Source of the DNA: Candidatus Curtissbacteria bacterium RIFOXYA1_FULL_41_14
Lineage (GTDB): Bacteria; Patescibacteriota; Microgenomatia; Curtissbacterales; GWA2-41-24
Length of the DNA stretch: 64,000 bases
Direction of reading: 5' to 3'
Assembly (NCBI GenBank): GCA_001775095.1
Contig: MFCA01000029.1
Location: 153,173 to 217,172 of the forward strand
Shown here: positions 6,868 through 49,273 of the stretch, piece by piece
Numbering within the stretch: the stretch's first letter is position 1
Layout: every line of letters starts with the position of its first letter
The notes under the pieces: model-generated
Seen by the model: the letters and a program-made list of their open reading frames with translations, nothing else
Databases searched by the model: none
Told to the model about the DNA's origin: nothing
Made by a program: the position numbers and the translations under genes

Positions 6868-7452
6868 TTAGTTAAAAAAGATTTCATCGCAAATTAATTT
6901 CATTTGCCAATCGAAAATAAAATAGCATAAGGATAAAAATGCCAAGAGGACAAAAACTATTTTTGCCAATTTTGTTTTTAAAAAAAAATCGATTCCCCAA
7001 AGAGAAAAGCTATACCAGAATATTGCTAAGAGAAAGAAAGAAATTTTAGAATTTAGCGTAGAAATTGCAATCAATGAGGTAGTCAAGATAACTGCGAAAT
7101 GGAATTTAGGTAAATATCTTCTCTTTTCAAATACTTTCAAAAAGGCAGCGGTTGCTAAAATTAAGCCCACCGGTCCTAAAATAACCATTAACAACTTGGG
7201 TTGAAAAGCGGAAGCAAAATTTTTAGAAAATTCAAAAATGCCAACAGTCGCTTTATTGTGGAAAAACCGGGAAATATTTCTATCCATACCGAAATCGGTA
7301 TTGACGTTTGACTCGACACTAACTTTTATAGAGAGAGGATTAAAGTAAAAACTTGAAAACTGTTTGCATCCAGTTGTCTGCCAAATTCTAAAACCAAAAA
7401 GGACAACTAAAATGATGATAAAAAATATCCTGAATTTATTTGAAGGTTTCAT
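6868..7452 (-). CDS. Small polytopic membrane protein, hypothetical
   Basis: 194 aa with about 5 hydrophobic segments. It sits between two GT39 paralogs in the same orientation. No recognisable motif. Confidence 0.4.
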   Translation of the reverse strand: MKPSNKFRIFFIIILVVLFGFRIWQTTGCKQFSSFYFNPLSIKVSVESNVNTDFGMDRNISRFFHNKATVGIFEFSKNFASAFQPKLLMVILGPVGLILATAAFLKVFEKRRYLPKFHFAVILTTSLIAISTLNSKISFFLLAIFWYSFSLWGIDFFLKTKLAKIVFVLLAFLSLCYFIFDWQMKLICDEIFFN

Positions 7453-15401: not shown

Positions 15402-17860
15402 AAATAAAGTGAAAAAAATATTGTTATAATAATGCCTACTATCGAAAGATAAAGACCATTATAGAATGATTGTGGCCTGAATTTAAATTCGGCTTCATGC
15501 TCTCCTCTGGGTATTAGAACGGACTGAAACATGTAGTTTATTCTTTTAATCTCATCTTTTTGGCCATCGATATAAACCTGCCAGCCGGGATAAAAAACGT
15601 TAGAGATAACAAGAGGGGCTTCGTCATCTGTTTTTGTTCTGAGTGTTAGCGACTGATCAGAGTACTTTATAAAGTTAACTGAGGCTTCGATTCTTTGCTT
15701 TGGGAATCCAAAATCCGACGAGACTGCAGTTGATCTAATATCAAAATGAGGGTCTAAAAGTTGTTCTAACTCTTGGTTTTGATCCCCAACTCTAATCACT
15801 TCTTTCACGAAAAACGCACGGGGTAGAGCATTGTCATTTCTAAAAATTTTAGTCTCCCCTTCTTGGAAGACTTTTTCAAAACCGGGCTCGGAAAGTTCGT
15901 CAAAAGTTGCTATGTAGCGCACATTCAGAAAATCGGCAATTTTTGAGAAGTACTTTTGGGGTGTTACTATTCTGTTAAAAGATCCGGCTTGGGTTACTTT
16001 TTGAGATTCCCAGGCAGTTACCAGCATTGCGTAATCTTTAAGATAAAGTGGATCATAACCATTAACAGCTTCAATCTGATAAACACTCGGTGTATTGCCA
16101 TTAAAGATTCTTCTGTCGGTGGTCATTATTCTAAAAGGTTTTTCCTGACTTGATAAGTATTTTGTAGTCTGTGTTTGAGGAAAAATCCAGGAAAGTTTTG
16201 AAAAAGGAGTGAACTTATAGCCGAATCTGAACAGTTCAAATAGCGTTAAGGCAAAAATCGCCAAAAGTAAAATAGTTTTTGGAATTTTGGCGATTTTTAA
16301 AATTATAAGTGCAAGCATTGAGAAAGAGATTAGTATTGGAAATATTAAATTTCTCAGGGCAACTTTAAATGAGTCAATATTTCCAGTAATAGGGAAAACA
16401 TCTTTAAAGATTAATGTGTAGGCTGCAAGAACAAATAGAACTGATAGAATTAAAACTGCCGGGATAATATGTTTCTTTTCGCGTTTCTTTTCGATAAAGT
16501 AATTTACTCCATAAGCGGACAAAACCGAAAGCGAGAATATAAAAAGAAATAGGATTCTTGAGGGTTGCATTGAAGAAATTAGAGGGAAATTAAAGATGTA
16601 GGGAATTTTTGAAATTGGATTTGCGATCGCAAAAACCAAGGAAAAAATTGCCAAAAATATAAAATAGATCGCCCTTTTTTCTCTTGACAAAAGTGCGAAG
16701 ATTACAAAAGCAAGAGGAACGATGCCGACAAAGCTGACGAATTCAGCCCAGTTCCAGATTCCCCAATAATTATAAGTTGCGGGATTACCAAAAAAATCCG
16801 GAGCCACAAGTTGAATCAAATTCTGAACTGGCAGAAACCAGTCAGTTCTTCCCGTAAAATACCCTTGATCAATTTCTCTTGCAGACAATCTGACAAACTC
16901 TAATGCCGGTAAAAGCTGAACCGCAGATATTAGAATACCTAAGGCCAATCCGCAAACTATAATCGTTAAGATTTCCAGCTTTTTTGATTGAAAAGTTTGA
17001 AAAATGACATAGAAGAACGTTGCGATAAACACGTAAAAGGCGGTCTGCCAATGACCTGACAGGATAGTTTGAGAGGCTGCAACTACTAAAACAATAAACC
17101 ACAGCGGGGATTGCCGAGTGAATAACTTATATTCGCTCGCAGAATGCCCTGTACTCTTGGTCCACGGATGAATGCTGGAGCGAATAGATACTTTCGAGGT
17201 ATATTCTGCTCGCTCATGTAAACTTTTAGGACAATATCGAGAGCTTTCAGCTCTCGAAAGTTTATTGACCGCAAGAAGAATTAAGGGAAGCCACATGGCA
17301 CAAGTAACGATAGTTCCCCAGGTCATCCAAGCAATAAAAAATCCGGTGAAGGGTAAAACAAGGGCTCCAAACATAGAGGCCATAATTGAAAGTTGCAGGC
17401 CTGTCTTGCCGGCAGGCAGGCTTCTCAAAAACAGGAACATAAAAAGTCCCGTTAATATCACAGGTAAAATTATTGCCAGCGTCCAAGCTATGTTAAACGG
17501 AAAGATGAAAAAGAGAAAATTAAATAACTGAAATGGCGATGACTGAATATTTGCTAAAAGTGGCTGACCCGAGAAACTATAAGGATTCCATAGAGGCAAA
17601 TTTCCTTCCTTTATATCATTCACTGCCAAATATCGCCATGGATATGTTTGCAAGACTGGATCAGTAATCAGAGGATTTTTAACCGGAAATTTACCCGCAT
17701 TGAAACCATCATATGTTTGGTCCCTCCAGGGATGATAGAGTCCCAAAAGGTCATCGGCACCAATTGGAACTTTTCCCATTAATAAATTTGGCAGGAAAAA
17801 AAGAAATACTATGATACAAATAACTATTGCACCAAAAGTATTAGAAGATAATTTTTTCAT
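15380..17860 (-). CDS. YfhO-like large polytopic membrane protein (putative GT-C glycosyltransferase), paralog Y1
   Basis: 826 aa. N-terminal 'LWNPYSFSGQPLLANIQSSPF' block shared with 37097..39529. Size and topology match YfhO-family proteins. This is family assignment by resemblance only. Confidence 0.5.
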   Translation of the reverse strand: MKKLSSNTFGAIVICIIVFLFFLPNLLMGKVPIGADDLLGLYHPWRDQTYDGFNAGKFPVKNPLITDPVLQTYPWRYLAVNDIKEGNLPLWNPYSFSGQPLLANIQSSPFQLFNFLFFIFPFNIAWTLAIILPVILTGLFMFLFLRSLPAGKTGLQLSIMASMFGALVLPFTGFFIAWMTWGTIVTCAMWLPLILLAVNKLSRAESSRYCPKSLHERAEYTSKVSIRSSIHPWTKSTGHSASEYKLFTRQSPLWFIVLVVAASQTILSGHWQTAFYVFIATFFYVIFQTFQSKKLEILTIIVCGLALGILISAVQLLPALEFVRLSAREIDQGYFTGRTDWFLPVQNLIQLVAPDFFGNPATYNYWGIWNWAEFVSFVGIVPLAFVIFALLSREKRAIYFIFLAIFSLVFAIANPISKIPYIFNFPLISSMQPSRILFLFIFSLSVLSAYGVNYFIEKKREKKHIIPAVLILSVLFVLAAYTLIFKDVFPITGNIDSFKVALRNLIFPILISFSMLALIILKIAKIPKTILLLAIFALTLFELFRFGYKFTPFSKLSWIFPQTQTTKYLSSQEKPFRIMTTDRRIFNGNTPSVYQIEAVNGYDPLYLKDYAMLVTAWESQKVTQAGSFNRIVTPQKYFSKIADFLNVRYIATFDELSEPGFEKVFQEGETKIFRNDNALPRAFFVKEVIRVGDQNQELEQLLDPHFDIRSTAVSSDFGFPKQRIEASVNFIKYSDQSLTLRTKTDDEAPLVISNVFYPGWQVYIDGQKDEIKRINYMFQSVLIPRGEHEAEFKFRPQSFYNGLYLSIVGIIITIFFSLYLWHKKYQ

Positions 17861-37100: not shown

Positions 37101-39529
37101 AACACTTTTTTTCTTATTGTGTAAGCTGTCATGATTATTAGAATAATAATTGATAAGGCGCTAAGCCCGGCACCAAGAATGAAAGATTTCGGCTGGTATT
37201 TAAACTCAACCTGATGATGGTTTTGCGGGACCGCAACGCTTCTAAAAGCATAGTGAGTACGCATAAGTTCTGACTTTTGTCCGTCAATATACACATTCCA
37301 GTCTTGGTCATATGTGTCTGAGATGAAAAGCAAAGAATTATAATCCAGATTAGTAGCGATAGATATCTCATTGGGTTCGTAGTTTATTATTTTTGGTTGA
37401 ACAATAGGCAAATTTTCTTTTTCAATTTTTATTGGGGGTTCTTGTTCTAAGATTAGAGTTTCCAAGTTAAAGCTTGGATCATAGATTTTTTGAATTATCT
37501 CCTGGTCGTTTTTGGCAATGAGGTAATTTGTAGTAAGAAATATTCTTGGCAGAACAGGTCTTCTTTCATAGACTTGAAACTTCTCTTCTTGCCATACCCC
37601 CGTGACATTATCATTTGGAAAATGTTCATAGTGCCAATCGCTATCAGTCTTTGGATTATCTTCTTTGTCCAATAGATATTTAACACCCAAAAGATCAAAA
37701 ATTCTTTTTCTGTAACCGTTTTCTTCGTTGGGGACAACACCGTCAGACCTTAAGTACGAAGACGGAACGCTGCCGTTAAAACTTGAGGCAAGAAGTTCGG
37801 CATATCTTTTGTTTCTCAAAGTGTCATAGCCCTCAATACCATATACCTGGTAATGGGTTGGGAAATTAAAGTCGATATGAGTTGTTCCTGCTCCGTAAAA
37901 TCTATATAAACCGCTATTGTCTCTTAACCAGTCGAAAAGCATATGGTCGGGGAAAATAAACTGCTTCGGGGCAACCGGCAAAAATTTATTAGTATAGTAG
38001 ATTCCGCCAACAAGCATTACCATAAACATGCTGGATACAAGAAAGATTTTCAACATGTTATTTGATAATTTAATTTTTGTTACTATGATTTGAATCATAG
38101 TAACAATTAAGGGTATTGAAACAAACATCAAAGTCGGTAGGATAAGATTTCTGCGGGTTACTGAAAGATTAGTCTGCCAAATTTCTTGAGGCTTTAGGAA
38201 AAACTTTCCTAAGATCGCAAAAAGCCAAAGCAACGCATAAATAACTCCAAGCAGCATGAGGAATTTTGAAATTTTTTTCAGATAAGTTTTGTTTTGGAAA
38301 TTTTTAACAAAATCTTCAAATCCGAAAGCGGCTAGAATGACCAGTAGAAAAATTGAAATTGAAATAAATCTTGAGGGCGTGGTTGCATCCAAAAGCGGAA
38401 TCTTTAAGGTTTTAATAAGATATGTTATCGGTCCGTGAACTGCGACTAGTATAAAAAAAGCCGATGTGAAAGCAGCAAACTTTGTAAAAGAAACCTTCCA
38501 TAATTTAACAATTGCCCAAAGAGCAAAAACCAAGGGAATAACCCCAAAATAAGGGGTAAAGTCTCCATAACTTTGACTCCAAAAATTATTGTTGGCGGGA
38601 TGACCAAAAAAATCGCTGGCAAAAAAGGTTATTAAGTTTTTAAAAGGTATGATGGATCTCTCAAATACTTCTTTGGAAAAAGGTAGCGAGATTGGTGAAT
38701 TTTTGTAAAACCCGTAAGTTGGGACCAATTGGATAGCACCGAGTAAAAGTGATGTTAGCACAGATATTATATAAATAAATAAATTTGCAAAAACTCTTTT
38801 ATTGGCGGATTTAAAAAGCCAATAAATAAATGTGGCCAGGTATAGATAAATTGCTGTTTGGGGATGACCAGCAAGAGTCGATAATGTAAGGGACAAAATA
38901 AGGATTAAAACATAACGCCATTTACCCGCCGGCTGCTCCCCTTCAAAGTAATTGTTGATCGCCCAAAATGATAGGGGCAGCCAGATGTAACTGTGGGCAA
39001 TATTGACATTTTCCATCCATGTAACAAGATAACTGGAAAACATAAAAGCAGTTGAGCCAAATAGTGAAGCGACCGAAGAAAGCCTAAAACTCCTTAAAGC
39101 CAGATACATAAAAATTCCTCCTAACAGCGGCTGGATTACGACAAGAAGGATCCAGGTATTTTGGGTACTGGTTAAAAAATATAAAAGGTTAAGGGGGAAA
39201 AAGACGCTAGACTGGAAATTCGCAAGAAGCGGTTGTCCGGAAAACGTATATGGATTCCAAAGCGGAAATTGGCCGTTTTTAAATTGTGAGATAGCAAATT
39301 CTTTCCAAAGATAAATCTGACGAATTGCATCCGCGTTCAATAGCTCTTTATGAGTAGTCCAAGGGTTATAACCTTCCCAACCGCCTGAATACCAAGGGAA
39401 ATAAAAAGAAACTAATAAATCGGCCGGAATCGGATATAGCCCTTTAAGAAAAATCTTAAAAAAAATAAAGAGGGTAAAGATACAAATTACGGCAAGGGGT
39501 AAAAAAAATGAAAATTCCTTCTTTTTCAT
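37097..39529 (-). CDS. YfhO-like large polytopic membrane protein, paralog Y2
   Basis: 810 aa. 'LWNPYTFSGQPLLANFQSSVFFPLN' block is shared with 15380..17860. Confidence 0.5.
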   Translation of the reverse strand: MKKKEFSFFLPLAVICIFTLFIFFKIFLKGLYPIPADLLVSFYFPWYSGGWEGYNPWTTHKELLNADAIRQIYLWKEFAISQFKNGQFPLWNPYTFSGQPLLANFQSSVFFPLNLLYFLTSTQNTWILLVVIQPLLGGIFMYLALRSFRLSSVASLFGSTAFMFSSYLVTWMENVNIAHSYIWLPLSFWAINNYFEGEQPAGKWRYVLILILSLTLSTLAGHPQTAIYLYLATFIYWLFKSANKRVFANLFIYIISVLTSLLLGAIQLVPTYGFYKNSPISLPFSKEVFERSIIPFKNLITFFASDFFGHPANNNFWSQSYGDFTPYFGVIPLVFALWAIVKLWKVSFTKFAAFTSAFFILVAVHGPITYLIKTLKIPLLDATTPSRFISISIFLLVILAAFGFEDFVKNFQNKTYLKKISKFLMLLGVIYALLWLFAILGKFFLKPQEIWQTNLSVTRRNLILPTLMFVSIPLIVTMIQIIVTKIKLSNNMLKIFLVSSMFMVMLVGGIYYTNKFLPVAPKQFIFPDHMLFDWLRDNSGLYRFYGAGTTHIDFNFPTHYQVYGIEGYDTLRNKRYAELLASSFNGSVPSSYLRSDGVVPNEENGYRKRIFDLLGVKYLLDKEDNPKTDSDWHYEHFPNDNVTGVWQEEKFQVYERRPVLPRIFLTTNYLIAKNDQEIIQKIYDPSFNLETLILEQEPPIKIEKENLPIVQPKIINYEPNEISIATNLDYNSLLFISDTYDQDWNVYIDGQKSELMRTHYAFRSVAVPQNHHQVEFKYQPKSFILGAGLSALSIIILIIMTAYTIRKKVF

Positions 39530-41034
39530 TAATTTGTGAATTGATGTTTTTCGACTACAAGGTCACCGGGGAATTCTTTTCTCGTCAGAACCACTGTTTT
39601 ATCTCTTGTTTTATCACCATACCAGCCGCCTTTATGGTATTTTTTGGAGGATTCTTCACGAATGACAAGGTACATAATATTCTGGTTTTTCTTTGGATTT
39701 TCCAACAATCCACGCCTATTGTACCAGTAAACTAGATAGTCAAAAGGGTAGTCAAAAATCGCGGGACTATATGCGTAGAAAGTGTAATTTTGGGGATTTT
39801 GTGAAGCAATATAATCCATGACCATTTTTTGATTTCGGTATGTACCTCCATCACCTAACCAACTAATTTTAAAAGGTGATATAAGCCCGCTGTTAAAATT
39901 TAATACAACCAATATCAGTATTAAAATGCTTATGGGTATTTTCAATTCTTTTATTGAGTAAGCATATAAAAAAATTTTCGAGAGGATAACTATAAATAAA
40001 ATAGGCAATCCTATTAAGTAATAGTTCCAAACTATGTCTTTGAAGATAGTAAAGAATACTAAGGAAAAAGCTAAAATTACTAATAAATATCTCAGGAAAA
40101 AATCGTTTTTCAACAGGTGCCAACTTCTCTTATCCCTTGAGATAATGAGAATTAAGACACCTATCGCAATTATTAAGGCTAAAGCGAATATTTTATTATT
40201 TTTCGTAAATGCCTGAGAAAAGATTTCCCAATAAAGATCCAGCCGATTATATAATCTATTAATTATTGGTACCTCTTGCCCATAATTTATAGGGTGAATT
40301 ATGTATGAGGCAATAGATTTTGAGATTAAGAAGTTATGTTTAATATCAAATATAATTCTCGGCGAAAGTATAGCTGCCATGCCTAAAAATGTTAATAAAA
40401 AGTGTTTCTTGTAAAAAATCTTCCTAAAAAGTAATAGCGATATTAGTACATTCAGAGACAACATCAACCCAAAAGGGAGTTCTGAATCCATAATCAAAAA
40501 TGCAATAATGCCCATAAAGAAAAATAGACTGTAGGAGGGCTTATTTGAAATTCGAAGTATAACGTAAAAGAAGGCTATGAGTAAAACAGGTGTCAAGGAG
40601 GTATTCCAGATTAGAGTTGGTCCAAGCATCCACGACGATGACATGGATGCGATGAGTGCTAAGGAGAATGCCAGAATTGATGATCCAGTGACTTTTCTTA
40701 ACAAGAAGAATAAAAAAATAACAGTCAGCACCGCCAGGAGTCCGAAAAAATTTGCGACTCCTTGAGGGTTACCTTTAGAAAAAAATAATATAGGTGATAG
40801 AAAATAATACCACCATGGACCATAAAAGATACCTTGAAGTCCACTGGTAGGACCAATTAAGGTTGGCTGATGTTCAAAAACTATCTGGGCTACCTTTAAC
40901 AGATCTCTTCCCTGATCATATGTGAACGCAAAAAAGCCCTGAGCGGTGATCGGTATTTTAAGAAGTAAATTAACAAGCGTAAGGATTAATAGTCCAATAT
41001 AATCAATCCTTGATAATTTTAGTGTTTCCTCCAT
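39529..41034 (-). CDS. Polytopic membrane protein family B (GT-C-like), paralog B2
   Basis: 'FAFTYDQGRDLLKVAQIVFEHQPTLIGPTSGLQGIFYGPWWYYF'. Confidence 0.5.
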   Translation of the reverse strand: MEETLKLSRIDYIGLLILTLVNLLLKIPITAQGFFAFTYDQGRDLLKVAQIVFEHQPTLIGPTSGLQGIFYGPWWYYFLSPILFFSKGNPQGVANFFGLLAVLTVIFLFFLLRKVTGSSILAFSLALIASMSSSWMLGPTLIWNTSLTPVLLIAFFYVILRISNKPSYSLFFFMGIIAFLIMDSELPFGLMLSLNVLISLLLFRKIFYKKHFLLTFLGMAAILSPRIIFDIKHNFLISKSIASYIIHPINYGQEVPIINRLYNRLDLYWEIFSQAFTKNNKIFALALIIAIGVLILIISRDKRSWHLLKNDFFLRYLLVILAFSLVFFTIFKDIVWNYYLIGLPILFIVILSKIFLYAYSIKELKIPISILILILVVLNFNSGLISPFKISWLGDGGTYRNQKMVMDYIASQNPQNYTFYAYSPAIFDYPFDYLVYWYNRRGLLENPKKNQNIMYLVIREESSKKYHKGGWYGDKTRDKTVVLTRKEFPGDLVVEKHQFTN

Positions 41035-42230
41035 TTTGTTACGCCTCTATCGAAAAATATTACAATGAATAATGTCAGGATAAGGGGAGCAACTGTTACC
41101 GCCTGCATGAAATTAATTGTATTGGGATGCGACCAATCGCCATAAAAAAGATATGGAAGATAGCGTAAGCTGGCCCCGACAGACAAGGTAATTGATATCA
41201 TAACAAGATTTAATCTTGGTAGAAGGGCAACAAATGGTAAAGTCCAGAATAAGTACCATGGTTGAAATTGGACTTGAGTGGCTCCGGCTGAGACAAAAGG
41301 GACGGTAATTCGAAATGAGGAAAATAAATACGTAAAGATTGCCATTGTTAGCAAATTTGCCAATACGAAGGAGTTAATTTTTTTCATTTTTCCGATACTG
41401 GCAAACAACAGCCAAGGTAAATTTAGGATCGGGATGTACTTAATCAAAACCCCTGCAAAAAGAATTGCCAATGACCAAAGGTTCTTACCGATGGCAAAGA
41501 AATATAATGATCCGAGCATAAAAGTTGCCAGAACCACATCGTTATGAGCGTTGGCCACGCCTTCTATCAGAAAAAGTGGGTTGAAAGTATAAAAAGCAGT
41601 CCCAAAAGTTGCCATCTTAATATTAATTCTTTTCAAAATTTTCCAAATTAAGTATGCATTGATTAAATGGAAAGAAGCGATAAAAATTTTAAATGTTAAG
41701 AAATTCAGAGTAAATTTTCCTAAGCCTAAGAACGCTGGAATGATTGACATACCAAGCCATAATGGTCCATATGGCGACAAGCGGTGCACCCAGCGCATAA
41801 ATCTTAACCAGTCATCATTTGGAAAATCCAGTGGTCTATAAGTGTAGGGACTTGCATGATAGTTGAGAATTATCTTAGCGTCAAAAAGATAATTAAAAAG
41901 ATCAGACGATAAAAAGGGGTAAGCCAAGATTAGTACTGACGTGTTGGCAATGGTTGATAATCTTAAATATCGTAAGCCAATTTTATTTCTGTAAAACAAC
42001 CACAAGTTAATAATGAAAAACGAAAAAGTAGTAATTATCAAAATCAAATAAATCAGAGTTGCTTGTGGCCGATGATAGTACCCCAGTTGTTGCATCAACC
42101 TGATAAATGAGAGCAGTTGAGGATTTTGAGATAGGGTCAGATTAAGGTCAACATAAGCATATGAAAACACTGTCAAGAAGCCATAAAGGGTAACATTAAT
42201 GCCGAGAAGAATCTTTTCGAGTTTTGACAC
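41019..42230 (-). CDS. Polytopic membrane protein, hypothetical (possible GT-C)
   Basis: 403 aa with about 10 TM segments. Confidence 0.45.
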   Translation of the reverse strand: MSKLEKILLGINVTLYGFLTVFSYAYVDLNLTLSQNPQLLSFIRLMQQLGYYHRPQATLIYLILIITTFSFFIINLWLFYRNKIGLRYLRLSTIANTSVLILAYPFLSSDLFNYLFDAKIILNYHASPYTYRPLDFPNDDWLRFMRWVHRLSPYGPLWLGMSIIPAFLGLGKFTLNFLTFKIFIASFHLINAYLIWKILKRINIKMATFGTAFYTFNPLFLIEGVANAHNDVVLATFMLGSLYFFAIGKNLWSLAILFAGVLIKYIPILNLPWLLFASIGKMKKINSFVLANLLTMAIFTYLFSSFRITVPFVSAGATQVQFQPWYLFWTLPFVALLPRLNLVMISITLSVGASLRYLPYLFYGDWSHPNTINFMQAVTVAPLILTLFIVIFFDRGVTKWRKH

Positions 42231-42236
42231 TTGCCA

Positions 42237-43619
42237 TTATTTTACAGAAACAACTTCGATAAAGCTAATAGTTTTGATTTCAACTTGTTTATCAGGAAAA
42301 GCTTTCTGATATTTTAATTTTAAAAAATACTCCGGTATATTATTTTCCAGGATGTATAGATTTTTTCCGCCTTCCCGGGGCTCTTTTTTTGATAATTTAA
42401 AAAGTGTTGGATAGCCGGTATTAAGTGAGATGGGTAAGTTATTGTAAAGATTATATGTCTGATTGTTGGTGTCGTTAATTATCAACTCGACAACCTTTTT
42501 TTTAGTTTCATAATTAACCCATGAGCTATAATTTATGGCTCTGCTAACGTTAGTGAATAGAAAAATTACTGCAAATGTTAAAAAAATCCAAAAGAATTTC
42601 CTTGCCGAAATGGAAACAAGCAAGATCATAGGTAATAAAACCTGTTGAAAATAATAATTCGGTACCCACCCTTTATAGAAAACAAAGCCCACAAAAGTAA
42701 AAATAATCCAAAATGGCAAAAATAGAAATAAACGGTTTTTTGACTTTAAGACTAGATAAATTCCAGAACCTATTAGGACAAGCGTTATTAGCGAAAAAAT
42801 TAATGAACTTGATTGGAAGAGATAAAAGGAAAAAAACGGAGTTAAGACATCTCTGAATAAAAACATGGATCTGAAGAGATAATCTTCGCTAGTAATATTT
42901 TGGTGAATAAAGTTAAGAAAGTTATTCAAAAGGATATTGTCATGACGGAAATTGAAAACAACCAGAGGTAAATAACTGGCCAAAAATGCCAGCGCAGCAG
43001 CGATAAAGACAAGCACGCTTCTTTTTGGTCTAATTAAGGCAAACAGGAAAAATGCTAAGGCTGAAAAAATAAAGACCGGATTAAAATTGACTACAGCAAT
43101 ACCAGCGATAAAGGCTCCAAAGACAATATATTTGTTTTCACCTAAAAAATATTTATAAAAGCAAAACAAAAGACCAGTAGAGGCTAGAAACAGGAAATAG
43201 TTGCTGTTGACACCTCCTTCAAATGAAATTTGGGCAAAAGAAACAGCATAAATTAAGCAAGTAATTGTTGCTGTTTTAGTATCAAAAATTTTTTGGGCAA
43301 TAAAATAAAGAACGGCTATGGTTATGACACCAATGATGAGGTAAAAATAAGGAACGCAATCAGGTGAAAGTTGGCAAATTCCGTATGGAATAAATTGTAT
43401 CCAGTTATGTAAGGGCCCCAAAAAAAATCCTTCAAATGATAACTCTTGTCCGACAAGTGTTATTTTATGGTACGTAAAAAAATCAAAGGCAGCCTCGGCT
43501 GGTACTTGTTGGTCGAAATCAAATGGGAAAATTTCTTCTATTTTGTAAAGTCTTAAAAATAAAGCGGCAATAAGAATAAGGGCGAGAACGAAATAACGTA
43601 TTTTGAATTTCGGAGGCAT
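42237..43619 (-). CDS. Polytopic membrane protein family B, paralog B3
   Basis: 'FDFDQQVPAEAAFDFFTYHKITLVGQELSFEGFFLGPLHNW'. Confidence 0.5.
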   Translation of the reverse strand: MPPKFKIRYFVLALILIAALFLRLYKIEEIFPFDFDQQVPAEAAFDFFTYHKITLVGQELSFEGFFLGPLHNWIQFIPYGICQLSPDCVPYFYLIIGVITIAVLYFIAQKIFDTKTATITCLIYAVSFAQISFEGGVNSNYFLFLASTGLLFCFYKYFLGENKYIVFGAFIAGIAVVNFNPVFIFSALAFFLFALIRPKRSVLVFIAAALAFLASYLPLVVFNFRHDNILLNNFLNFIHQNITSEDYLFRSMFLFRDVLTPFFSFYLFQSSSLIFSLITLVLIGSGIYLVLKSKNRLFLFLPFWIIFTFVGFVFYKGWVPNYYFQQVLLPMILLVSISARKFFWIFLTFAVIFLFTNVSRAINYSSWVNYETKKKVVELIINDTNNQTYNLYNNLPISLNTGYPTLFKLSKKEPREGGKNLYILENNIPEYFLKLKYQKAFPDKQVEIKTISFIEVVSVK

Positions 43620-44275
43620 TAGTCTTTTTGAGCAACTATTAATGATTGTTTCCCGAATATTAAATGTAAGGGTGTCAGCTTTAAGTAGAATCGTACAAGT
43701 ATGGGGATCTTGGGTAAATTGCCTTTTGTAGAATAAGGTAAAAATTTGCTCTTTTTCTCAATAATTCTGAAACCCTTTAACTCTAAAAGCTCAATCATAC
43801 TTTTATCGGAAAGCGGTAGTTGATGGTCTAAAAAATCCCAATATGCGGATCCCACGTACCTAATATTTGGCATTAAAATTATTAATCTTCCTCTTTTTTT
43901 TAATACCTTCCTAATTTCATCGACAGTAATTACCAGTTCTTCCTTGGTTGGAAGATGCTCAAAAAAATTGCTGGCAAAGACTACATCTAATTTATCTTTA
44001 ATTTTTTGGGCGAGATTAACACTTTTGCAGGCTACGACTTGCACATCACTTGCCGCGTATTTACGGGATTCCGGGTTAACATCGATAGCAATTTTATTTT
44101 GGGCTTTGATGTTATTTATAAATTCACAAAAGCCTGCGCCAAGATCACAAATTGTATCGGTGGTTTTTATGTATTTTTGGAAGAAATCCTGGCAAAGAAC
44201 TTTCCAGATTTCATTGCGAATTTTGATGTCTTTTTCGAAACGAAGTCTATAAAGCCTTGCAGTGGTATATTCCAT
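43619..44275 (-). CDS. Class I SAM-dependent methyltransferase
   Basis: 'ICDLGAGFCEFINNI' motif I, 'VVFASNFFEHLP'. Confidence 0.6.
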   Translation of the reverse strand: MEYTTARLYRLRFEKDIKIRNEIWKVLCQDFFQKYIKTTDTICDLGAGFCEFINNIKAQNKIAIDVNPESRKYAASDVQVVACKSVNLAQKIKDKLDVVFASNFFEHLPTKEELVITVDEIRKVLKKRGRLIILMPNIRYVGSAYWDFLDHQLPLSDKSMIELLELKGFRIIEKKSKFLPYSTKGNLPKIPILVRFYLKLTPLHLIFGKQSLIVAQKD

Positions 44276-45031
44276 TTAGCGATAAACGCCACGAAGGTCG
44301 TTTAGACGGACTTTAACTACGTCACGAAACATTCTCAAGGAATCTTTAATGGGATTAACTCGAGAAGTGGCAACGTGATGCCAGATAATCGGTACTTCTT
44401 TAATTTTGTAGCCTGATTTTTGGGCAAGAAATAACAGTTCAACATCAAATGCGGTGACTAAAGCGCCTTTAACCTTTTTACCTTTTGCATAAACTTTTAG
44501 TTTTTCAAAAAGCTTTTTGGCAACATCGGCCTTGAAACATTTAAAGCCGGCTTGCGTATCCCAAATTCCCCGAACCGCAATCGTCTGGACAACAAGATTA
44601 AATACTAAGCCCATTAAGTGGCGGTGAAATGGTTCTTTTTCTCTTTTGGCACCAGGGATTTGTCTGGAACCAATTACCACATCATAATCGGGGAAAAATG
44701 GAAGTAGTTTTTCAATTTCAGAAAGGGGCGTAGCTTGATCAAAATCAGTAAACAAGATCAATTCCCCTTTTGCTTCCCGGACTCCGGTCTTGACTGTTTC
44801 TGCTTTTCCCTGGTGCGGATTCTTAATAACGCGGATATTTTCGAATTTTTTTGCAAATTCACCGGCTAACTTGGCGGTTTGATCATCCGAACCGTCATCA
44901 ATAATTAAGGCCTCGTATGAATAATCTTGTTTTTCTAAATATTTCGGAACCTCATCCAAAATTCCTTTTTTAAAATTCGGCTCCTCGTTGTAGGCCGGGA
45001 TAATAACAGAAAGGTAAGGCTTTGTGGACAC
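44276..45031 (-). CDS. GT2 polyprenol-phosphate glycosyltransferase (dolichyl-phosphate beta-glucosyltransferase-like)
   Basis: 'LSVIIPAYNEEPNFKKGILDEV...ALIIDDGSDDQTAKLA', 251 aa soluble. Confidence 0.65.
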   Translation of the reverse strand: MSTKPYLSVIIPAYNEEPNFKKGILDEVPKYLEKQDYSYEALIIDDGSDDQTAKLAGEFAKKFENIRVIKNPHQGKAETVKTGVREAKGELILFTDFDQATPLSEIEKLLPFFPDYDVVIGSRQIPGAKREKEPFHRHLMGLVFNLVVQTIAVRGIWDTQAGFKCFKADVAKKLFEKLKVYAKGKKVKGALVTAFDVELLFLAQKSGYKIKEVPIIWHHVATSRVNPIKDSLRMFRDVVKVRLNDLRGVYR

Positions 45032-45070
45032 CTTAATTATTATGCTTGTTAAGACTTGTCCTTGTCAAAG

Positions 45071-45493
45071 CCCCGTTAGAGACTTTGTGAGAAAAAGAAT
45101 TTTAGCCTGTTCTTTAGATATCTTCTTCCCATGCCTGACTTAAGATACTTCTCCCTTGCCCTAGCATCTTCCCTATTTAAACCAACTTCAAAGTAAATTA
45201 TTTTCCAAGGTATTCCATGTTTAGTTGATCTATTCTTACCAGAATTATGCTGTAAAATTCTTTTTCTCAAGTTATTTGTCGATCCGATATACCAGTGACC
45301 ATTCTTTTTACTAACTAACAAGTATACGTACCACATCCCGTTAGAAGTTGACCTCAAGGATTAAGGCTCCTTATTAAGGAGCTTGAGATAATTTTTTATT
45401 GCAATCTAGATTGTATCTCAAAACAACGAAAATTTCTTCGAGATTTTCGTTAACAGACTTTTAACGGGACACATAAATTAGTCTCTAACGGGG
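45071..45493. mobile_element. Candidate GIY-YIG cassette delimited by 14-bp perfect inverted repeats (ccccgttagagact / agtctctaacgggg)
   Basis: IR-L is at 45071-45084 and overlaps the GIY-YIG stop. IR-R is at 45480-45493 and overlaps the pyrB stop and its last 4 codons. A 14-mer inverted match within 430 bp is very unlikely by chance. Confidence 0.45.
45076..45357 (-). CDS. Stand-alone GIY-YIG nuclease-domain protein (UPF0213/YhbQ-like)
   Basis: 'WYVYLLVSKKNGHWYIGSTNNLRKRILQHNSG' GIY-YIG signature. 93 aa. Confidence 0.7.
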   Translation of the reverse strand: MRSTSNGMWYVYLLVSKKNGHWYIGSTNNLRKRILQHNSGKNRSTKHGIPWKIIYFEVGLNREDARAREKYLKSGMGRRYLKNRLKFFFSQSL

Positions 45494-46395
45494 TCAAAGA
45501 GATAAAGAAGGAGTGCCATTCTGACATAAAGGCCATTTTGTGCTTCTTCAAAATAAATCGCACGCGGGTCTTTGTCGACATCTTTAGTAATTTCATTGAT
45601 TCTTGGTAATGCATGCATAATAACTGCATTTTTTTTCATCAGTTTTAAAGAATTTTTGTCAATGACATATACCCCAAAATATTTTTTATAATCCGATTTT
45701 GTCAATCTTTCTTTTTGTATTCTAGTCTGATAAATTACATCTGCTTCCCTTAGTCCATCTACTAATTTATCTGTCTCAGTAAATTCATTACCGGATTTCT
45801 TAAGTCTTTCTCTTAATTCTGGGAATATTCTCAGTTTATCGGGCGAGACAAAAATGAATTTAACCCTTGGATAAAGCGTCAACAAATACGATAGTGAGTG
45901 GACTGACCTATAAGTTGCCAGATCACCAACCATAGCTACGGTAAAATCAGGATTTTTAAACTTTGAAAAGATTGTGTAAAGATCAAGTAGTGCCTGAGTA
46001 GGATGTTCATGACTGCCATCTCCCGCATTGATAACCGGGACTTTTGAATATGAAGCGGCAATTTCCGAGGCTCCGGATACAAAATGTCTCAAAACTACTA
46101 CATCACAAAAAGAATTAACGACACGAATCGTGTCTTCAAGAGTTTCCCCTTTTATTGCCGAGGAGAACTCTGCCGCGTTATCTGTGGCAACTACAGATCC
46201 GCCAAGTCGAAGCATGGCTGATTCAAAAGAAAGCCTGGTCCTGGTTGATGGCTCATAAAAGAGAGTTGCCATAATTTTCCCTCTCAAGGCATTTTTGGGG
46301 TATTTTTTAGCTTTGATTTTATCAACAATGGAAAAAAGATTTGAGAGGGTATTTTTATCGAATTGTTTGGCAGAAATTATGTGCCTGAGTTTCAT
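45478..46395 (-). CDS. pyrB: Aspartate carbamoyltransferase catalytic subunit
   Basis: 'STRTRLSFESAMLRLGG' carbamoyl-phosphate binding motif, 'HPTQALLDLYT' and 'HALP' motifs. Confidence 0.85.
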   Translation of the reverse strand: MKLRHIISAKQFDKNTLSNLFSIVDKIKAKKYPKNALRGKIMATLFYEPSTRTRLSFESAMLRLGGSVVATDNAAEFSSAIKGETLEDTIRVVNSFCDVVVLRHFVSGASEIAASYSKVPVINAGDGSHEHPTQALLDLYTIFSKFKNPDFTVAMVGDLATYRSVHSLSYLLTLYPRVKFIFVSPDKLRIFPELRERLKKSGNEFTETDKLVDGLREADVIYQTRIQKERLTKSDYKKYFGVYVIDKNSLKLMKKNAVIMHALPRINEITKDVDKDPRAIYFEEAQNGLYVRMALLLYLFDPVRD

Positions 46396-46453
46396 CGGAG
46401 AAAATTATACACCAGTCGTTGTCATAATTTAAGACCCCTGCTTAGTTTATATC

Positions 46454-47761
46454 CTATTGTCTGGTGAATCTATAAAACCAAATCCTGTCGCCTAAATCGA
46501 TTGAGTAATCATACTTGCGGTTGCCAATTGAGGAAACTTCCCATTGGGGCAGATCGAAACCGCTTTTTGTTTCTCCCCAATCAACTAAATAAAGAGTATC
46601 TGCAAACGGGTAACCATCATAACCCAATGGTATATCACCACACTGCCTTACCCACCAACGCAATTCAAATCCTCTAAGGTCACCAATGGCGGTAGCAACT
46701 TCAAAATTTCTCTTTTGTTTATCATCACAGATAATTCCGGCCACATATTTCTGTTTGGTAACCGTCCAACCCGGTTGCATAGTGATCCCATATTTAGGTA
46801 AAGGGAAATTGTAAAGTAATAAAACTATAGTAATTGCCCCAATTAACAGTAGTCTAAAAAGAAATTTTATTCTGCGGGTGGTAAAGAAGAAGATTAATGC
46901 TATAAGCCAAAACATTACCGCTAAGAATCCAAAAGAAAAGTAATATGTGAGCCAGAGGTCTGAATTTGGATTGACACCGTTAGCAATGAAAGTCTTAAAG
47001 TTGTAAAAATTGTGTCTTAGGTCAAATATCAAATAAGGTAAATCACCAATAGTAGCACCAATCAGGAAAAATATTAAATGAAAAATATTAAAGATTCTTC
47101 TGATAAATCCCACAAACCATATGAAACCAATTAAGATAAACCAAGCTAAAATTGAGAAATGGAAACTGAAAGCTATTCCTGTAAAAATACCCGTCAAAAA
47201 CCAATATTTATTTTCCTTTTTGCTTAAAGCCTTCCAGAGAAAATAAACCAAGAATACGGAAACCAGGGGAAGAAAATTTGGATTGATAATCATTTTATTA
47301 AACTGGACCAAATAAGGATGAGTGGCAAATATTCCATAGACTAAAACCCCTGCCAGCCAATCTAATTTTCTACCTATCCACACAAAAAGAATTAATGAGC
47401 TTAAAAACCAGTAAAACAACATAAATTTTGTTATAGCAATAACATTCCAGCTGAAAATTACCCCAAGTACGCCAAGAATATAGTAATAATAAGGTCCAAT
47501 AAAATATCCCTTACCCTCGACAACGCGAGTCCCGACAATTGGGCCAATTAATCTCGGTTTTTTCAGAGCAACCATCTCCTGGACTTCTTGCATGTGCTCA
47601 CCCTGGTCAAGACTAAAAACCATAGTATTTTCGAAATTATAAAGTCTTAAAATCCAAAAGATTGAAGTAAATATGCAAAACAAAATTGCTATTGCAAACC
47701 CTTTAGGGGTTTTCAACTGGCTGATTAACTTTTTGACTTTTAAGTTTCTATTTTTTTTCAT
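46454..47761 (-). CDS. Polytopic membrane protein family B, paralog B4
   Basis: 'FSLDQGEHMQEVQEMVALKKPRLIGPIVG...GYFIGPYYYY'. Confidence 0.5.
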   Translation of the reverse strand: MKKNRNLKVKKLISQLKTPKGFAIAILFCIFTSIFWILRLYNFENTMVFSLDQGEHMQEVQEMVALKKPRLIGPIVGTRVVEGKGYFIGPYYYYILGVLGVIFSWNVIAITKFMLFYWFLSSLILFVWIGRKLDWLAGVLVYGIFATHPYLVQFNKMIINPNFLPLVSVFLVYFLWKALSKKENKYWFLTGIFTGIAFSFHFSILAWFILIGFIWFVGFIRRIFNIFHLIFFLIGATIGDLPYLIFDLRHNFYNFKTFIANGVNPNSDLWLTYYFSFGFLAVMFWLIALIFFFTTRRIKFLFRLLLIGAITIVLLLYNFPLPKYGITMQPGWTVTKQKYVAGIICDDKQKRNFEVATAIGDLRGFELRWWVRQCGDIPLGYDGYPFADTLYLVDWGETKSGFDLPQWEVSSIGNRKYDYSIDLGDRIWFYRFTRQ

Positions 47762-49273
47762 TTAACTACCCTTAATCGCCGGCTTACCGGCAGGGTTGGG
47801 GGCCCCGGACCAGTGTGTAAGTTTAAAAACTTTGATGCCGATATTGGGCAATTCCCATTCCCCTGCTATTTCTCCTCTGCCAAAGCCGGCTATTTCCCAA
47901 ATTGGATTTCCAAGCGGCGCACATTGCTGTGATTCGCAAACAACCAGCAATTGATTGGTAATCATTGTTTCAAGATCAACTGGTCTGTATCCTTTAAATT
48001 CCAGAAAATACCGATAGGCATGATCACTATTATGTTCTGAGATTAGAGCGAAATTAAACTGCTCTTCATTCGATTTTTGGATGATAAAATCGGCAACTGT
48101 TTCTGTTTGGTTGATAAGGCGATTCGGAGGTGTCTTGTAAAAACCGTTAACTGAAAAATAGATTAGTGCCAAAATAGTTACAATAACAACGGATAATCTG
48201 TAGAAAAGATTGTACCAGAAAGTGGAAAAAACAAGTCCAGCTAGCAAAAATGGCGCGGGAAACAAAAATCCGAAATAATAATCATGGACTTGCCCTTTAT
48301 AAAAACGCAGTCCTGCAAGACCGCCTAAAAACCAAATAACGGCTATTGAGAAAATTAATCTCTTTTCATAGTTTTTCCAGTGTTTGACAAGTCCGAATAA
48401 TCCGCTAAAGGTTAAAATCCAAAAAGCCAACCTGGTAATAATTGTTCCTTTAAGTCCGGTTATCCATTCTAAAAAGATATTGCCGCCATTGGATATCAAC
48501 CATGAATAACTTTTTGTCTGGTAACCGACTGTTGATCCGCGGGTTACAAATTCAAGTATCGTTTTAAAGTTTGGAAACCCGTGACGAATTTCAAATATCA
48601 AAAATGGGGAAAAGGTGATAATTGAACCGAGCAAGTAAATCAGAAATATCACCGGCCACCTTTTGAAATTGGAACTCGTAATAACAATAAGGCCAAAAAT
48701 CGCGATTAAGATTGTTGCCAGATAGTGGAGTTGAATGGCAATACCAAAAGATGCACCAGCTGCCAGAAAATACAGAATCTTCTTTCGAGTAACTCCTAAA
48801 TAAATTAAATAAATCATCAGAAGCGAGAAAAAGGGTAATGGATTCGGATTCCATGATGATCTTGAATATCTAACAACCAATGGTGCGATAGCATAAAGCG
48901 AACTTGCTAAAATCGCCGGCCAAAATCCTGCTGTCTCCTTTAAAAATTTATAGAGAAGAAGGACAGTTAAGACGCCAAAAATCGCAATCATATATGAGGG
49001 GCCAACTGGATCAAAGCGCCAAGCCCACAAAAACGGGGCTGCCATCCAGTAATAGATTGGTCCGAGATAAAAACCGCCAACCGATGCTGTCGGACCAAGA
49101 AAAGGCAGGTGGCCTTGGGTAAAAATCTCGCGCATGACTATCATGTCCCGGCCTTCATCACCAAGAAAAACAACATAATCGCCAATTTGCCAAAAACGGA
49201 AGAAGGTTGCAACGAGGATGAGTAAAATAAGTAAAGTTAGTTGAATTGGTTTGGGAAAATTAAATAGAGTCAT
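47762..49273 (-). CDS. Polytopic membrane protein family B, paralog B5
   Basis: 'FLGDEGRDMIVMREIFTQGHLPFLGPTASVGGFYLGPIYYW'. Confidence 0.5.
   Translation of the reverse strand: MTLFNFPKPIQLTLLILLILVATFFRFWQIGDYVVFLGDEGRDMIVMREIFTQGHLPFLGPTASVGGFYLGPIYYWMAAPFLWAWRFDPVGPSYMIAIFGVLTVLLLYKFLKETAGFWPAILASSLYAIAPLVVRYSRSSWNPNPLPFFSLLMIYLIYLGVTRKKILYFLAAGASFGIAIQLHYLATILIAIFGLIVITSSNFKRWPVIFLIYLLGSIITFSPFLIFEIRHGFPNFKTILEFVTRGSTVGYQTKSYSWLISNGGNIFLEWITGLKGTIITRLAFWILTFSGLFGLVKHWKNYEKRLIFSIAVIWFLGGLAGLRFYKGQVHDYYFGFLFPAPFLLAGLVFSTFWYNLFYRLSVVIVTILALIYFSVNGFYKTPPNRLINQTETVADFIIQKSNEEQFNFALISEHNSDHAYRYFLEFKGYRPVDLETMITNQLLVVCESQQCAPLGNPIWEIAGFGRGEIAGEWELPNIGIKVFKLTHWSGAPNPAGKPAIKGS

Follow-up and report, generated by a model that had tools for sequence, protein, structure and literature searches.

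What is a gene for a small GIY-YIG nuclease doing between two perfect inverted repeats, one of which runs into the end of pyrB? The gene lies in the genome of Candidatus Curtissbacteria bacterium RIFOXYA1_FULL_41_14 (GenBank assembly GCA_001775095.1), within a stretch of 64,000 nucleotides of contig MFCA01000029.1 (positions 153,173 to 217,172) that we call the window, and whose own numbering is used throughout. The window was matched to a groundwater contig from the Rifle aquifer (Ga0208245_1000017, also NCBI MFCB01000049). An original prediction, made from this DNA alone, had held that the nuclease gene is carried on a mobile cassette bounded by the repeats, whose insertion at the 3′ end of pyrB re-templated that end. 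This is borne out by reconstruction of the site as it was before insertion, by empty sites in relatives, and by dozens of unrelated insertion sites with target-site duplications (TSDs). The cassette belongs to a family of mobile DNA resembling insertion sequences (IS), with terminal repeats, target duplications, empty sites and derivatives of the MITE type (miniature inverted-repeat transposable element). The reading that we favor, and judge likely as a whole, is that the window copy is a member of a large, widespread family of very small IS-like elements of the ultra-small Patescibacteria (Candidate Phyla Radiation, CPR), accompanied by MITE derivatives, in which the mobility enzyme is probably the GIY-YIG nuclease.

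Within the window the nuclease gene is located between pyrB, upstream on the same strand, and a gene for a family-2 glycosyltransferase downstream. Deletion in silico of 45071-45493 together with one copy of CTTTGA changes the end of the pyrB product from ...LFDPVRD-stop to ...LFDKDKS-stop (reconstructed as ...YLFDKDKS-stop). A C-terminus of ...LFDK followed by a few residues is found in most of the 60 closest pyrB homologs listed, and the product of a homolog of 89% identity ends in ...LLLYLFDKA. A scan of reference genomes gave pyrB relatives of no more than 49% identity, which were unusable; closer ones were obtained by protein search and contig look-ups. Two relatives have an empty site. 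In locus L089 (pyrB 89% identical) the glycosyltransferase gene directly follows pyrB, and in L090 (80% identical), where the same PMT_2-pyrB-GT2 gene order is found, pyrB lies directly before the glycosyltransferase gene; neither has the element. In another relative, L092 (67% identical), a unit of 133 bp with the same kind of ends and no gene is located at the identical position in pyrB. Relatives without the GIY-YIG gene do not have the C-terminus of the window pyrB but a different one (...LFDK...), the opposite of what would speak against an insertion. The element landed in the last codons of pyrB, duplicated CTTTGA and exchanged the tail ...KDKS for ...PVRD. Ahead of the glycosyltransferase gene a promoter scan finds TTGACA, 18 nt and CATAAT, an 11/12 promoter-like match (45068-45039, minus strand). 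Since the second copy of CTTTGA rebuilds this TTGACA, four residues of pyrB were changed and the downstream signal was kept.

The terminal repeats themselves are those that had been proposed. On the plus strand CCCCGTTAGAGACT at 45071-45084 has its exact reverse complement AGTCTCTAACGGGG at 45480-45493, and both inspection of the sequence and a repeat search return the perfect 14-bp inverted repeat at the coordinates first given. The left repeat does cover the stop codon of the nuclease (TTA on the plus strand, 45076-45078). The right repeat covers the last four codons of pyrB, P-V-R-D (45481-45492), as claimed; it shares only the first base of the pyrB stop (45478-45480), however, and the statement that both repeats contribute a TAA stop is wrong, because in the pyrB frame the TAA within the right repeat reads GTT AGA.

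Nor is the repeat far beyond chance on its length alone, as had been asserted. In second-order Markov simulations of the window, where an event is a perfect inverted repeat of at least 14 bp within 600 bp, the mean was 0.61 events, and 44% of simulated windows contained one or more. This frequency is what could be said for regarding the repeat as a coincidence, or as a terminator or attenuator of the usual kind, lying between pyrB and a nuclease gene with a housekeeping role. Yet the 64-kb window, in which 1.18 copies of the 9-mer core CCCGTTARA are expected, has four, and every one lies inside the 423 bp of the insertion; read on the gene strand, two are forward and the following two reverse. 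Chance could be rejected only once comparative data were in hand. The same arms are present at 75 of 80 loci encoding homologs, and they exhibit compensatory changes. It is the clustering of the 9-mer together with this recurrence, and not length, that marks the repeat as non-random, and coincidence or a terminator is an explanation to which we give almost no credence.

Further copies of the motif were sought in the window. Allowing up to three mismatches, the 14-mer has no other copy in the window beyond the level of chance, the 9-mer core has none outside the 423 bp, and no second GIY-YIG gene is present in the window. As candidates in their own right a terminator was rejected, with no terminator-like site in 44950-45600, and so was a known RNA, with no tRNA, transfer-messenger RNA or Rfam match in the window. 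Perfect 14-bp inverted repeats of short spacing are found at 16253-16298 and 38077-38106; they have an unrelated motif, and look like ordinary hairpins.

The comparison set consists of 80 metagenome loci encoding homologs of the nuclease, of which 68 are non-redundant. At 75 of the 80 the GIY-YIG gene has CCCCGTTAGAA on one side, ~17 nt ahead of the ATG, and TTCTAACGGGG on the other, where it overlaps the stop codon; at the remaining five the right arm differs by a single base. The outer CCCC and GGGG mark the exact limits of similarity between loci. The canonical unit is 280-287 bp in length, and its terminal repeats are perfect over 14-16 bp in the majority of copies, the range being 9-18 bp. 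Within one sub-family (L041, L056, L063, L065, L066, L073, L077 and L080) the units are 87-91% identical in nucleotide sequence, while their flanks are at the level of random similarity. Flanks are unrelated between loci, and no conserved partner gene lies beside any of the 68 non-redundant loci. The 86-amino acid window protein has at least 763 homologs, the best 120 listed being 71-85% identical, and source names include Levy-, Jorgensen-, Pace- and Wildermuthbacteria and Parcubacteria. Among clusters at 50% identity, 1,245 match at E ≤ 1e-10 and 7,872 at E ≤ 1e-3. Gene calls for the homologs carry extra residues, either MNPVRSQ, TPLET or TSNG at the N-terminus or SNGVEFKFSV at the C-terminus; these are a single DNA motif read in different frames and orientations, and the window pyrB ends in DPVRD. 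Some relatives of ~50-60% identity still have extensions of the MNPVR type. No relative was found among IMG/VR viral contigs, and a PADLOC search for defense systems returned weak partial-domain matches only.

Two kinds of irregular copy were seen. L040 and L073 are pseudogene copies in which TGG has become TAG inside the nuclease ORF (open reading frame), with the ends still perfect. Two protein representatives of 205-214 amino acids (P0241 and P0253) contain two GIY-YIG stretches, which suggests tandem or fused units.

Insertion has left its mark on the flanking DNA. An exact direct repeat of at least 4 bp abuts both ends at 51 of the 68 non-redundant junctions (75%), compared with 14% when left and right flanks were re-paired between loci as a control. 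The duplicated tetramer is TGAA at 16 loci, TTGA at 11 and TATG at 8, with others besides, and the consensus is TNNR, with an invariant T first and, in fourth place, A (78%) or G (20%). Across the family the duplication is of 4 bp (range 3-6); that in the window is 6 bp. Three loci from diverged genomes (L035, L074 and L083) share an insertion site after ...K-W-stop of the upstream gene, with duplication of TGGTAA or TGGTAG, which suggests a hot spot hit repeatedly or else long retention by vertical descent.

These junctions bear on a further explanation, that the unit is a gene cassette of the integron type with GTTRRRY and RYYYAAC core sites, moved by an integron integrase. The arms hold GTTAGAA and TTCTAAC, which are superficially like such core sites. 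GTTAGAA and GTTAGAG fail at the last position of GTTRRRY, however, and there is no attC after the gene, host sequence starting directly past GGGG. The insertions are single and scattered with 4-bp duplications, and no recombinase was found among the neighboring genes. An integron cassette is thus extremely improbable.

Insertions coincide with host signals, and lie at start codons (ATGAA, TATG), in -35-like TTGACA boxes and at tRNA ends, and at all of these the terminal G's or A of the element together with the duplicate rebuild the signal of the host. Every one of the 16 TGAA insertions is at a host start codon ATGAA (GTGAA in one case), and the right-hand copy, GGGG-TGAA, provides the host gene with a GTG start made from the last G of the element and the duplicate. 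In most of these 16 (L027, L041, L043, L056, L065, L077 and others) the nuclease frame lacks an ATG and is instead entered from that of the host, which lies outside the element (MNPVR...WYVY). A different arrangement is seen where the left flank is ...ATG. In all 12 such insertions, eight with an exact TATG duplication, a three-codon ORF (MPR-stop, once MSR-stop) is followed by the nuclease ATG, and the host ATG lies 5-8 nt past the nuclease stop. TTGA insertions are nearly always in TTGACA boxes. At L038 (860-1213) the insertion is at the 3′ end of tRNA-Ala with duplication of TCCA, and at L088 (2485-2836) it abuts the 5′ end of tRNA-Pro, the first five bases of the tRNA coming from the terminal repeat of the element. 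The element is always co-oriented with the host gene that supplies its start signals.

The insertion in the window is a composite. On deletion of 45336-45469 and one copy of TGTG we recover CCCCGTTAGAGACT-AATTT-ATGTGG, which is the canonical spacing of the family, and the composite minus its nested part aligns end to end with 64 canonical elements. A gene-less member of 134 bp inserted later at the nuclease ATG, duplicating TGTG, and the terminal A of the nested unit with the TG of the duplicate rebuilds that ATG. The nested element has the properties of a MITE: it is short and non-coding, with terminal inverted repeats (TIRs), a TSD and ends in common with a gene-carrying partner. The weak hairpin that had been noted between the repeats is real, and is the subterminal hairpin of this nested element. 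The GIY-YIG ORF also stands, at a different length. The 93 amino acids first given came from a mechanical call from TTG at 45357, whereas the ATG used in the family, at 45336, gives 86; the alternative TTG start has AAGGAG 9 nt upstream, within the nested element.

Gene-less units with the same ends and 4-bp duplications are found near or inside other copies, at L012, L021, L022, L024, L033, L036, L048, L065, L067 (two) and L092, and their sizes cluster at 131-134 bp. The size class of the nested window element is represented at L012, L022, L033, L048, L065, L067 and L092. In L096, a Parcubacteria genome from NCBI, there are three units in 14.6 kb. One carries the gene, one is a gene-less unit of 126 bp (658-783, duplication TTTA), and one of only 36 bp (7179-7214, duplication CACA) comprises two 14-bp ends and an 8-nt loop, its ends exactly matching those of the gene-carrying unit, at a distance of 2.5 kb. 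A second unit lies within 2.5 kb at 9 of the 68 loci. Six of eight gene-less units of 131-134 bp have a perfect hairpin of 9-14 bp located 18-19 nt from one end, and in a seventh (L022) such a hairpin is 32 nt from an end. The hairpins are similar in sequence (G-C/T-A-GAAAAAATTT, GCAAAAAGAAAG), and may be at either end relative to local transcription. Two arrangements of neighboring units were also observed. At L033 (1643-2059) a gene-less and a gene-carrying unit abut with TGAA in common, and at L067 (263-520) two gene-less units lie in tandem.

Alignment of 65 canonical units and analysis with RNAalifold reveals two long-range helices. H1 is formed by the terminal repeats. H2 lies within the gene, pairing the codons L(R/Q)KRIL with the codons LKFFF(A/S), and in the window it corresponds to a perfect 17-bp inverted repeat inside the ORF. 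The original prediction had overlooked this repeat and the conserved internal helix, and it had also missed how large the family is, the duplication of target sites, and the gene-less element of 134 bp nested in the insertion. The H2 stem is 16-17 bp across the family, with its 3′ arm ~7 nt inside the 3′ end of the element. Over H1 and H2 97.9% of the cells are paired, and 13 of 30 pairs exhibit compensatory double changes. The observed values were not attained in any of 500 shuffles, and pairing fell to 40-65% when the partner was displaced by 1-3 columns. Positions 11-14 of the terminal repeat covary between the two arms across the family, and some of the compensations in H2 substitute amino acids, as in Q/R/H against F/Y. 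Codon usage within H2 is almost fixed, with a normalized codon entropy of 0.25 compared with 0.78 elsewhere, and a synonymous difference of 0.41 in the helix codons compared with 0.81 elsewhere. The minimum-free-energy fold of the window element contains all three nested stems (z = -5.6 as DNA and -4.9 as RNA). On the sense strand there are ~30 cells of the G:U type and ~12 of the A:C type. These counts, which are not independent events, hint weakly at the sense strand as the folding one.

Because the ends and a subterminal stem are common to members with and without the gene, they point to a role in cis in mobility, and not in translation of the nuclease. Translation is where a third explanation would place them, with the unit as a free-standing homing endonuclease gene that spreads by homologous repair, and the repeats and helix exerting control on its mRNA. 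GIY-YIG is indeed a classic homing-endonuclease fold, and the protein has a weak match to TIGR01453 (group I intron endonuclease; 34.9 bits). The excess of G:U over A:C pairs on the sense strand and the constant co-orientation with a host gene whose start signals serve the element would also be as expected. However, the TIGR01453 score falls below the family cutoff of 56.05, and the insertions are in many unrelated genes, not at one homing site. They have 4-bp duplications, and homing leaves none. The gene-less copies retain the ends and the hairpin with nothing to translate, and with the hairpin at either end, and the protein has no DNA-binding domain. We therefore regard homing as decidedly improbable.

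The sole ORF of the element is a GIY-YIG domain, matching Pfam PF01541 with 65.2 bits against a cutoff of 22.6 (E = 6.7e-18). In an alignment of 71 sequences Y5, Y16, R26 and E50 are invariant, with H30 and N76 at least 90% conserved; we take these residues of the window protein to correspond to the catalytic residues Y6, Y17, R27, E75, H31 and N90 of I-TevI, respectively. By sequence the closest solved relatives are the UPF0213 protein BH0048 (1zg2; E = 5e-5) and Slx1 (4xlg; E = 2e-3), ahead of other GIY-YIG families. The AlphaFold model (predicted local distance difference test, pLDDT, 85.8) has the GIY-YIG fold, a three-stranded sheet flanked by helices, with the order E-E-H-E-H-H, and its top fold matches in the PDB are 1zg2, Slx1 (4xlg and 7cq3) and then the catalytic domain of I-TevI (1ln0), all with weak E-values of 2.6e-3 to 0.4. 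On sequence and model, the window protein is in the Slx1/UPF0213 (URI) branch, and structure-specific nuclease activity is predicted for it. The ratio of nonsynonymous to synonymous differences, pN/pS, is ~0.21 with synonymous sites near saturation, and we conclude that the protein is old and under purifying selection. It consists of the 86-amino acid catalytic domain only, with no DNA-binding domain. The element encodes no DDE, DEDD, HUH, serine or tyrosine recombinase or Cas1 transposase and, since no recognized transposase is present, it can be filed in no existing IS family.

How might such a protein move the element? The nuclease would recognize the paired ends and the subterminal stem in single-stranded or extruded DNA, and would cut at the base of the structure. 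It would make a 4-nt staggered cut at TNNR targets, with the joints completed by host polymerase and ligase. Copies without the gene, left with only the ends and the hairpin, would be moved in trans.

A number of observations weigh against the nuclease as the mobility enzyme of an active family. A nuclease domain of 86 amino acids, lacking a DNA-binding domain or a known strand-transfer activity, is an unlikely stand-alone transposase, and no GIY-YIG enzyme is known to join DNA. A trans-acting transposase may be encoded elsewhere in these genomes. The length of the duplication is variable (3-6 bp), which is unusual for a single transposase. All 24 contigs that encode the exact window protein have it at the same locus, giving no sign of current activity in that species, and several insertions (for example that of L035, L074 and L083) are common to diverged relatives and have been long resident. 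The bias toward start codons and -35 boxes could result from survivorship in gene-dense genomes rather than from targeting, and the helices may act in DNA or in RNA.

The principal alternative is that the transposon is moved in trans by an unrelated transposase, with the GIY-YIG gene as cargo, perhaps a retention or 'drive' nuclease cutting empty sites for recombinational copy-back. TnpB plays such a retention role for elements of the IS605 family. Strand transfer by a lone nuclease of this size is hard to credit, copies lacking the gene move or have moved, and the element is fixed at a single site in the window species, all of which would be accommodated. Against this, there is no conserved partner gene at the 68 non-redundant loci, and Patescibacteria have small genomes that are poor in IS. 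Moreover the gene fills the element exactly, with its stop in the terminal repeat and its codons forming helix H2. This exact fit, taken with the saturated synonymous sites and low pN/pS, indicates a long and tight co-evolution of gene and element. We consider movement by an unrelated transposase unlikely, and prefer the nuclease as the probable mobility enzyme, an assignment drawn from sequence comparison.

The element can be compared with known systems. Like the TIR insertion sequences and MITEs (IS630/Tc1-mariner and IS5; Correia and RUP) it has perfect TIRs, short TSDs, unrelated insertion sites and gene-less derivatives, and in those systems too insertions supply or preserve promoters. 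In contrast to those IS, the only protein encoded here is an 86-amino acid GIY-YIG nuclease rather than an enzyme of the DDE, HUH, serine or tyrosine kind; coding sequence supplies a conserved long-range stem, and one sub-family borrows the start codon of its host. The smallest known IS is ~0.7 kb, and the element, at ~285 bp, is under half that. IS200/IS605 and REP/RAYT are also very small, with end-proximal DNA hairpins as the apparent cis signal and scattered short gene-less hairpin derivatives, but they use an HUH tyrosine transposase and have neither TIRs nor target duplication, whereas the window element has no HUH enzyme and has both TIRs and TSDs.

Other comparisons follow from the protein. 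Slx1/UPF0213 proteins (YhbQ, BH0048) are the closest relatives in sequence and fold, and their catalytic residues are those of the window protein. The substrates of Slx1 are branched and stem-loop DNA, as would suit an element with ends that fold into stems. These proteins are, however, treated as host repair factors (Slx1 with Slx4 and a RING domain), and are not known on mobile units bounded by repeats. The T4 Seg proteins and I-TevI are likewise GIY-YIG nucleases encoded by selfish genes, but homing enzymes carry large domains for DNA binding, have a single long cognate site and leave no inverted repeats or duplications. In Penelope-like retroelements a GIY-YIG nuclease serves integration, and target duplications are of variable length. 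Those elements are eukaryotic, encode a reverse transcriptase, which is absent here, and do not have this terminal architecture.

In kind, then, the element is a TIR/TSD transposon with MITEs, and it would be a new transposon class if the nuclease were confirmed as the transposase. More tentatively, as a possibility that we place somewhat short of even, it may be a new autonomous class of DNA transposon and the smallest known (~285 bp), in which an 86-amino acid Slx1-like nuclease acts as a transposase reading folded ends, made up of the terminal stem and a subterminal stem that its own frame encodes. The targets of such a transposon would be tRNA ends, start codons and -35 boxes; the host signal would be regenerated from its terminal bases and the duplication, and host translation would be relayed through the element. 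A full-text literature search, with subscription-only literature outside its scope, found no description of a GIY-YIG gene within terminal repeats with target duplications. A GIY-YIG protein is merely listed among genes transferred from Patescibacteria (PMC12455944).

The features of the locus are collected in Table 1. The pyrB gene stands alone within a cluster of membrane glycosyltransferase genes (PMT_2, GT2, MptA/B-like and methyltransferase; window 41019-49273), and is not with pyrimidine-synthesis genes. In a strain variant of the window contig (L003, 3184-4634) two ORFs stand in place of the PMT_2 gene that lies two genes upstream of pyrB, a split in one assembly that could be strain variation or an assembly error.

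Table 1. Features of the composite insertion and of pyrB, in window coordinates.
Feature	Position	Strand	Remarks
Composite insertion, 423 bp	45071..45493	-	~285-bp GIY-YIG element, nested 134-bp element and 4-bp duplication
5′ terminal inverted repeat (gene sense), CCCCGTTAGAGACT on minus strand	45480..45493	-	Encodes pyrB P-V-R-D and first base of stop
3′ terminal inverted repeat, AGTCTCTAACGGGG on minus strand	45071..45084	-	Holds GIY-YIG stop TAA (45078-45076)
Upstream target-site duplication CTTTGA	45494..45499	-	pyrB codons ..L-F-D
Downstream target-site duplication CTTTGA	45065..45070	-	With next two bases forms TTGACA, -35 box
GIY-YIG nuclease gene, 86 amino acids and stop, Slx1/UPF0213-type	45076..45336	-	PF01541
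Nested gene-less element (MITE), 134 bp	45336..45469	-	Ends TCCCGTTAAAAGT and ACTTCTAACGGGA, 12/13 complementary
Upstream TGTG duplication from nested element	45470..45473	-	Read from sequence and reconstruction
Downstream TGTG duplication	45332..45335	-	Bases 2-5 of nuclease ORF, A-TGTG-G
Nested-element subterminal hairpin, AACGAAAAT / ATTTTCGTT	45425..45451	-	18 nt from 5′ end of nested element
Helix H2 5′ arm, codons L-R-K-R-I-L	45253..45269	-	Perfect 17-bp inverted repeat, compensatory changes
Helix H2 3′ arm, codons L-K-F-F-F-S	45088..45104	-	A few bases inside 3′ terminal repeat
pyrB, aspartate carbamoyltransferase	45478..46395	-	Pfam OTCace_N and OTCace; last four codons and stop element-derived

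If the nuclease is the mobility enzyme, it would represent a new catalytic class of transposase, and the element would set a new lower limit to the size of an autonomous mobile element. It would also provide a function for part of the large uncharacterized group of UPF0213 or 'GIY-YIG nuclease family protein' sequences. The recurrent odd N- and C-terminal extensions (MNPVRSQ, TPLET, SNGV...) in Patescibacteria gene calls would be explained, as would altered ends of housekeeping proteins such as that encoded by pyrB. The element may perhaps be useful as a compact insertion tool. Its design would be a route by which a parasite persists in gene-dense genomes: the ends restore start codons, promoters and tRNA termini, and the reading frame serves at the same time as a stem acting in cis.

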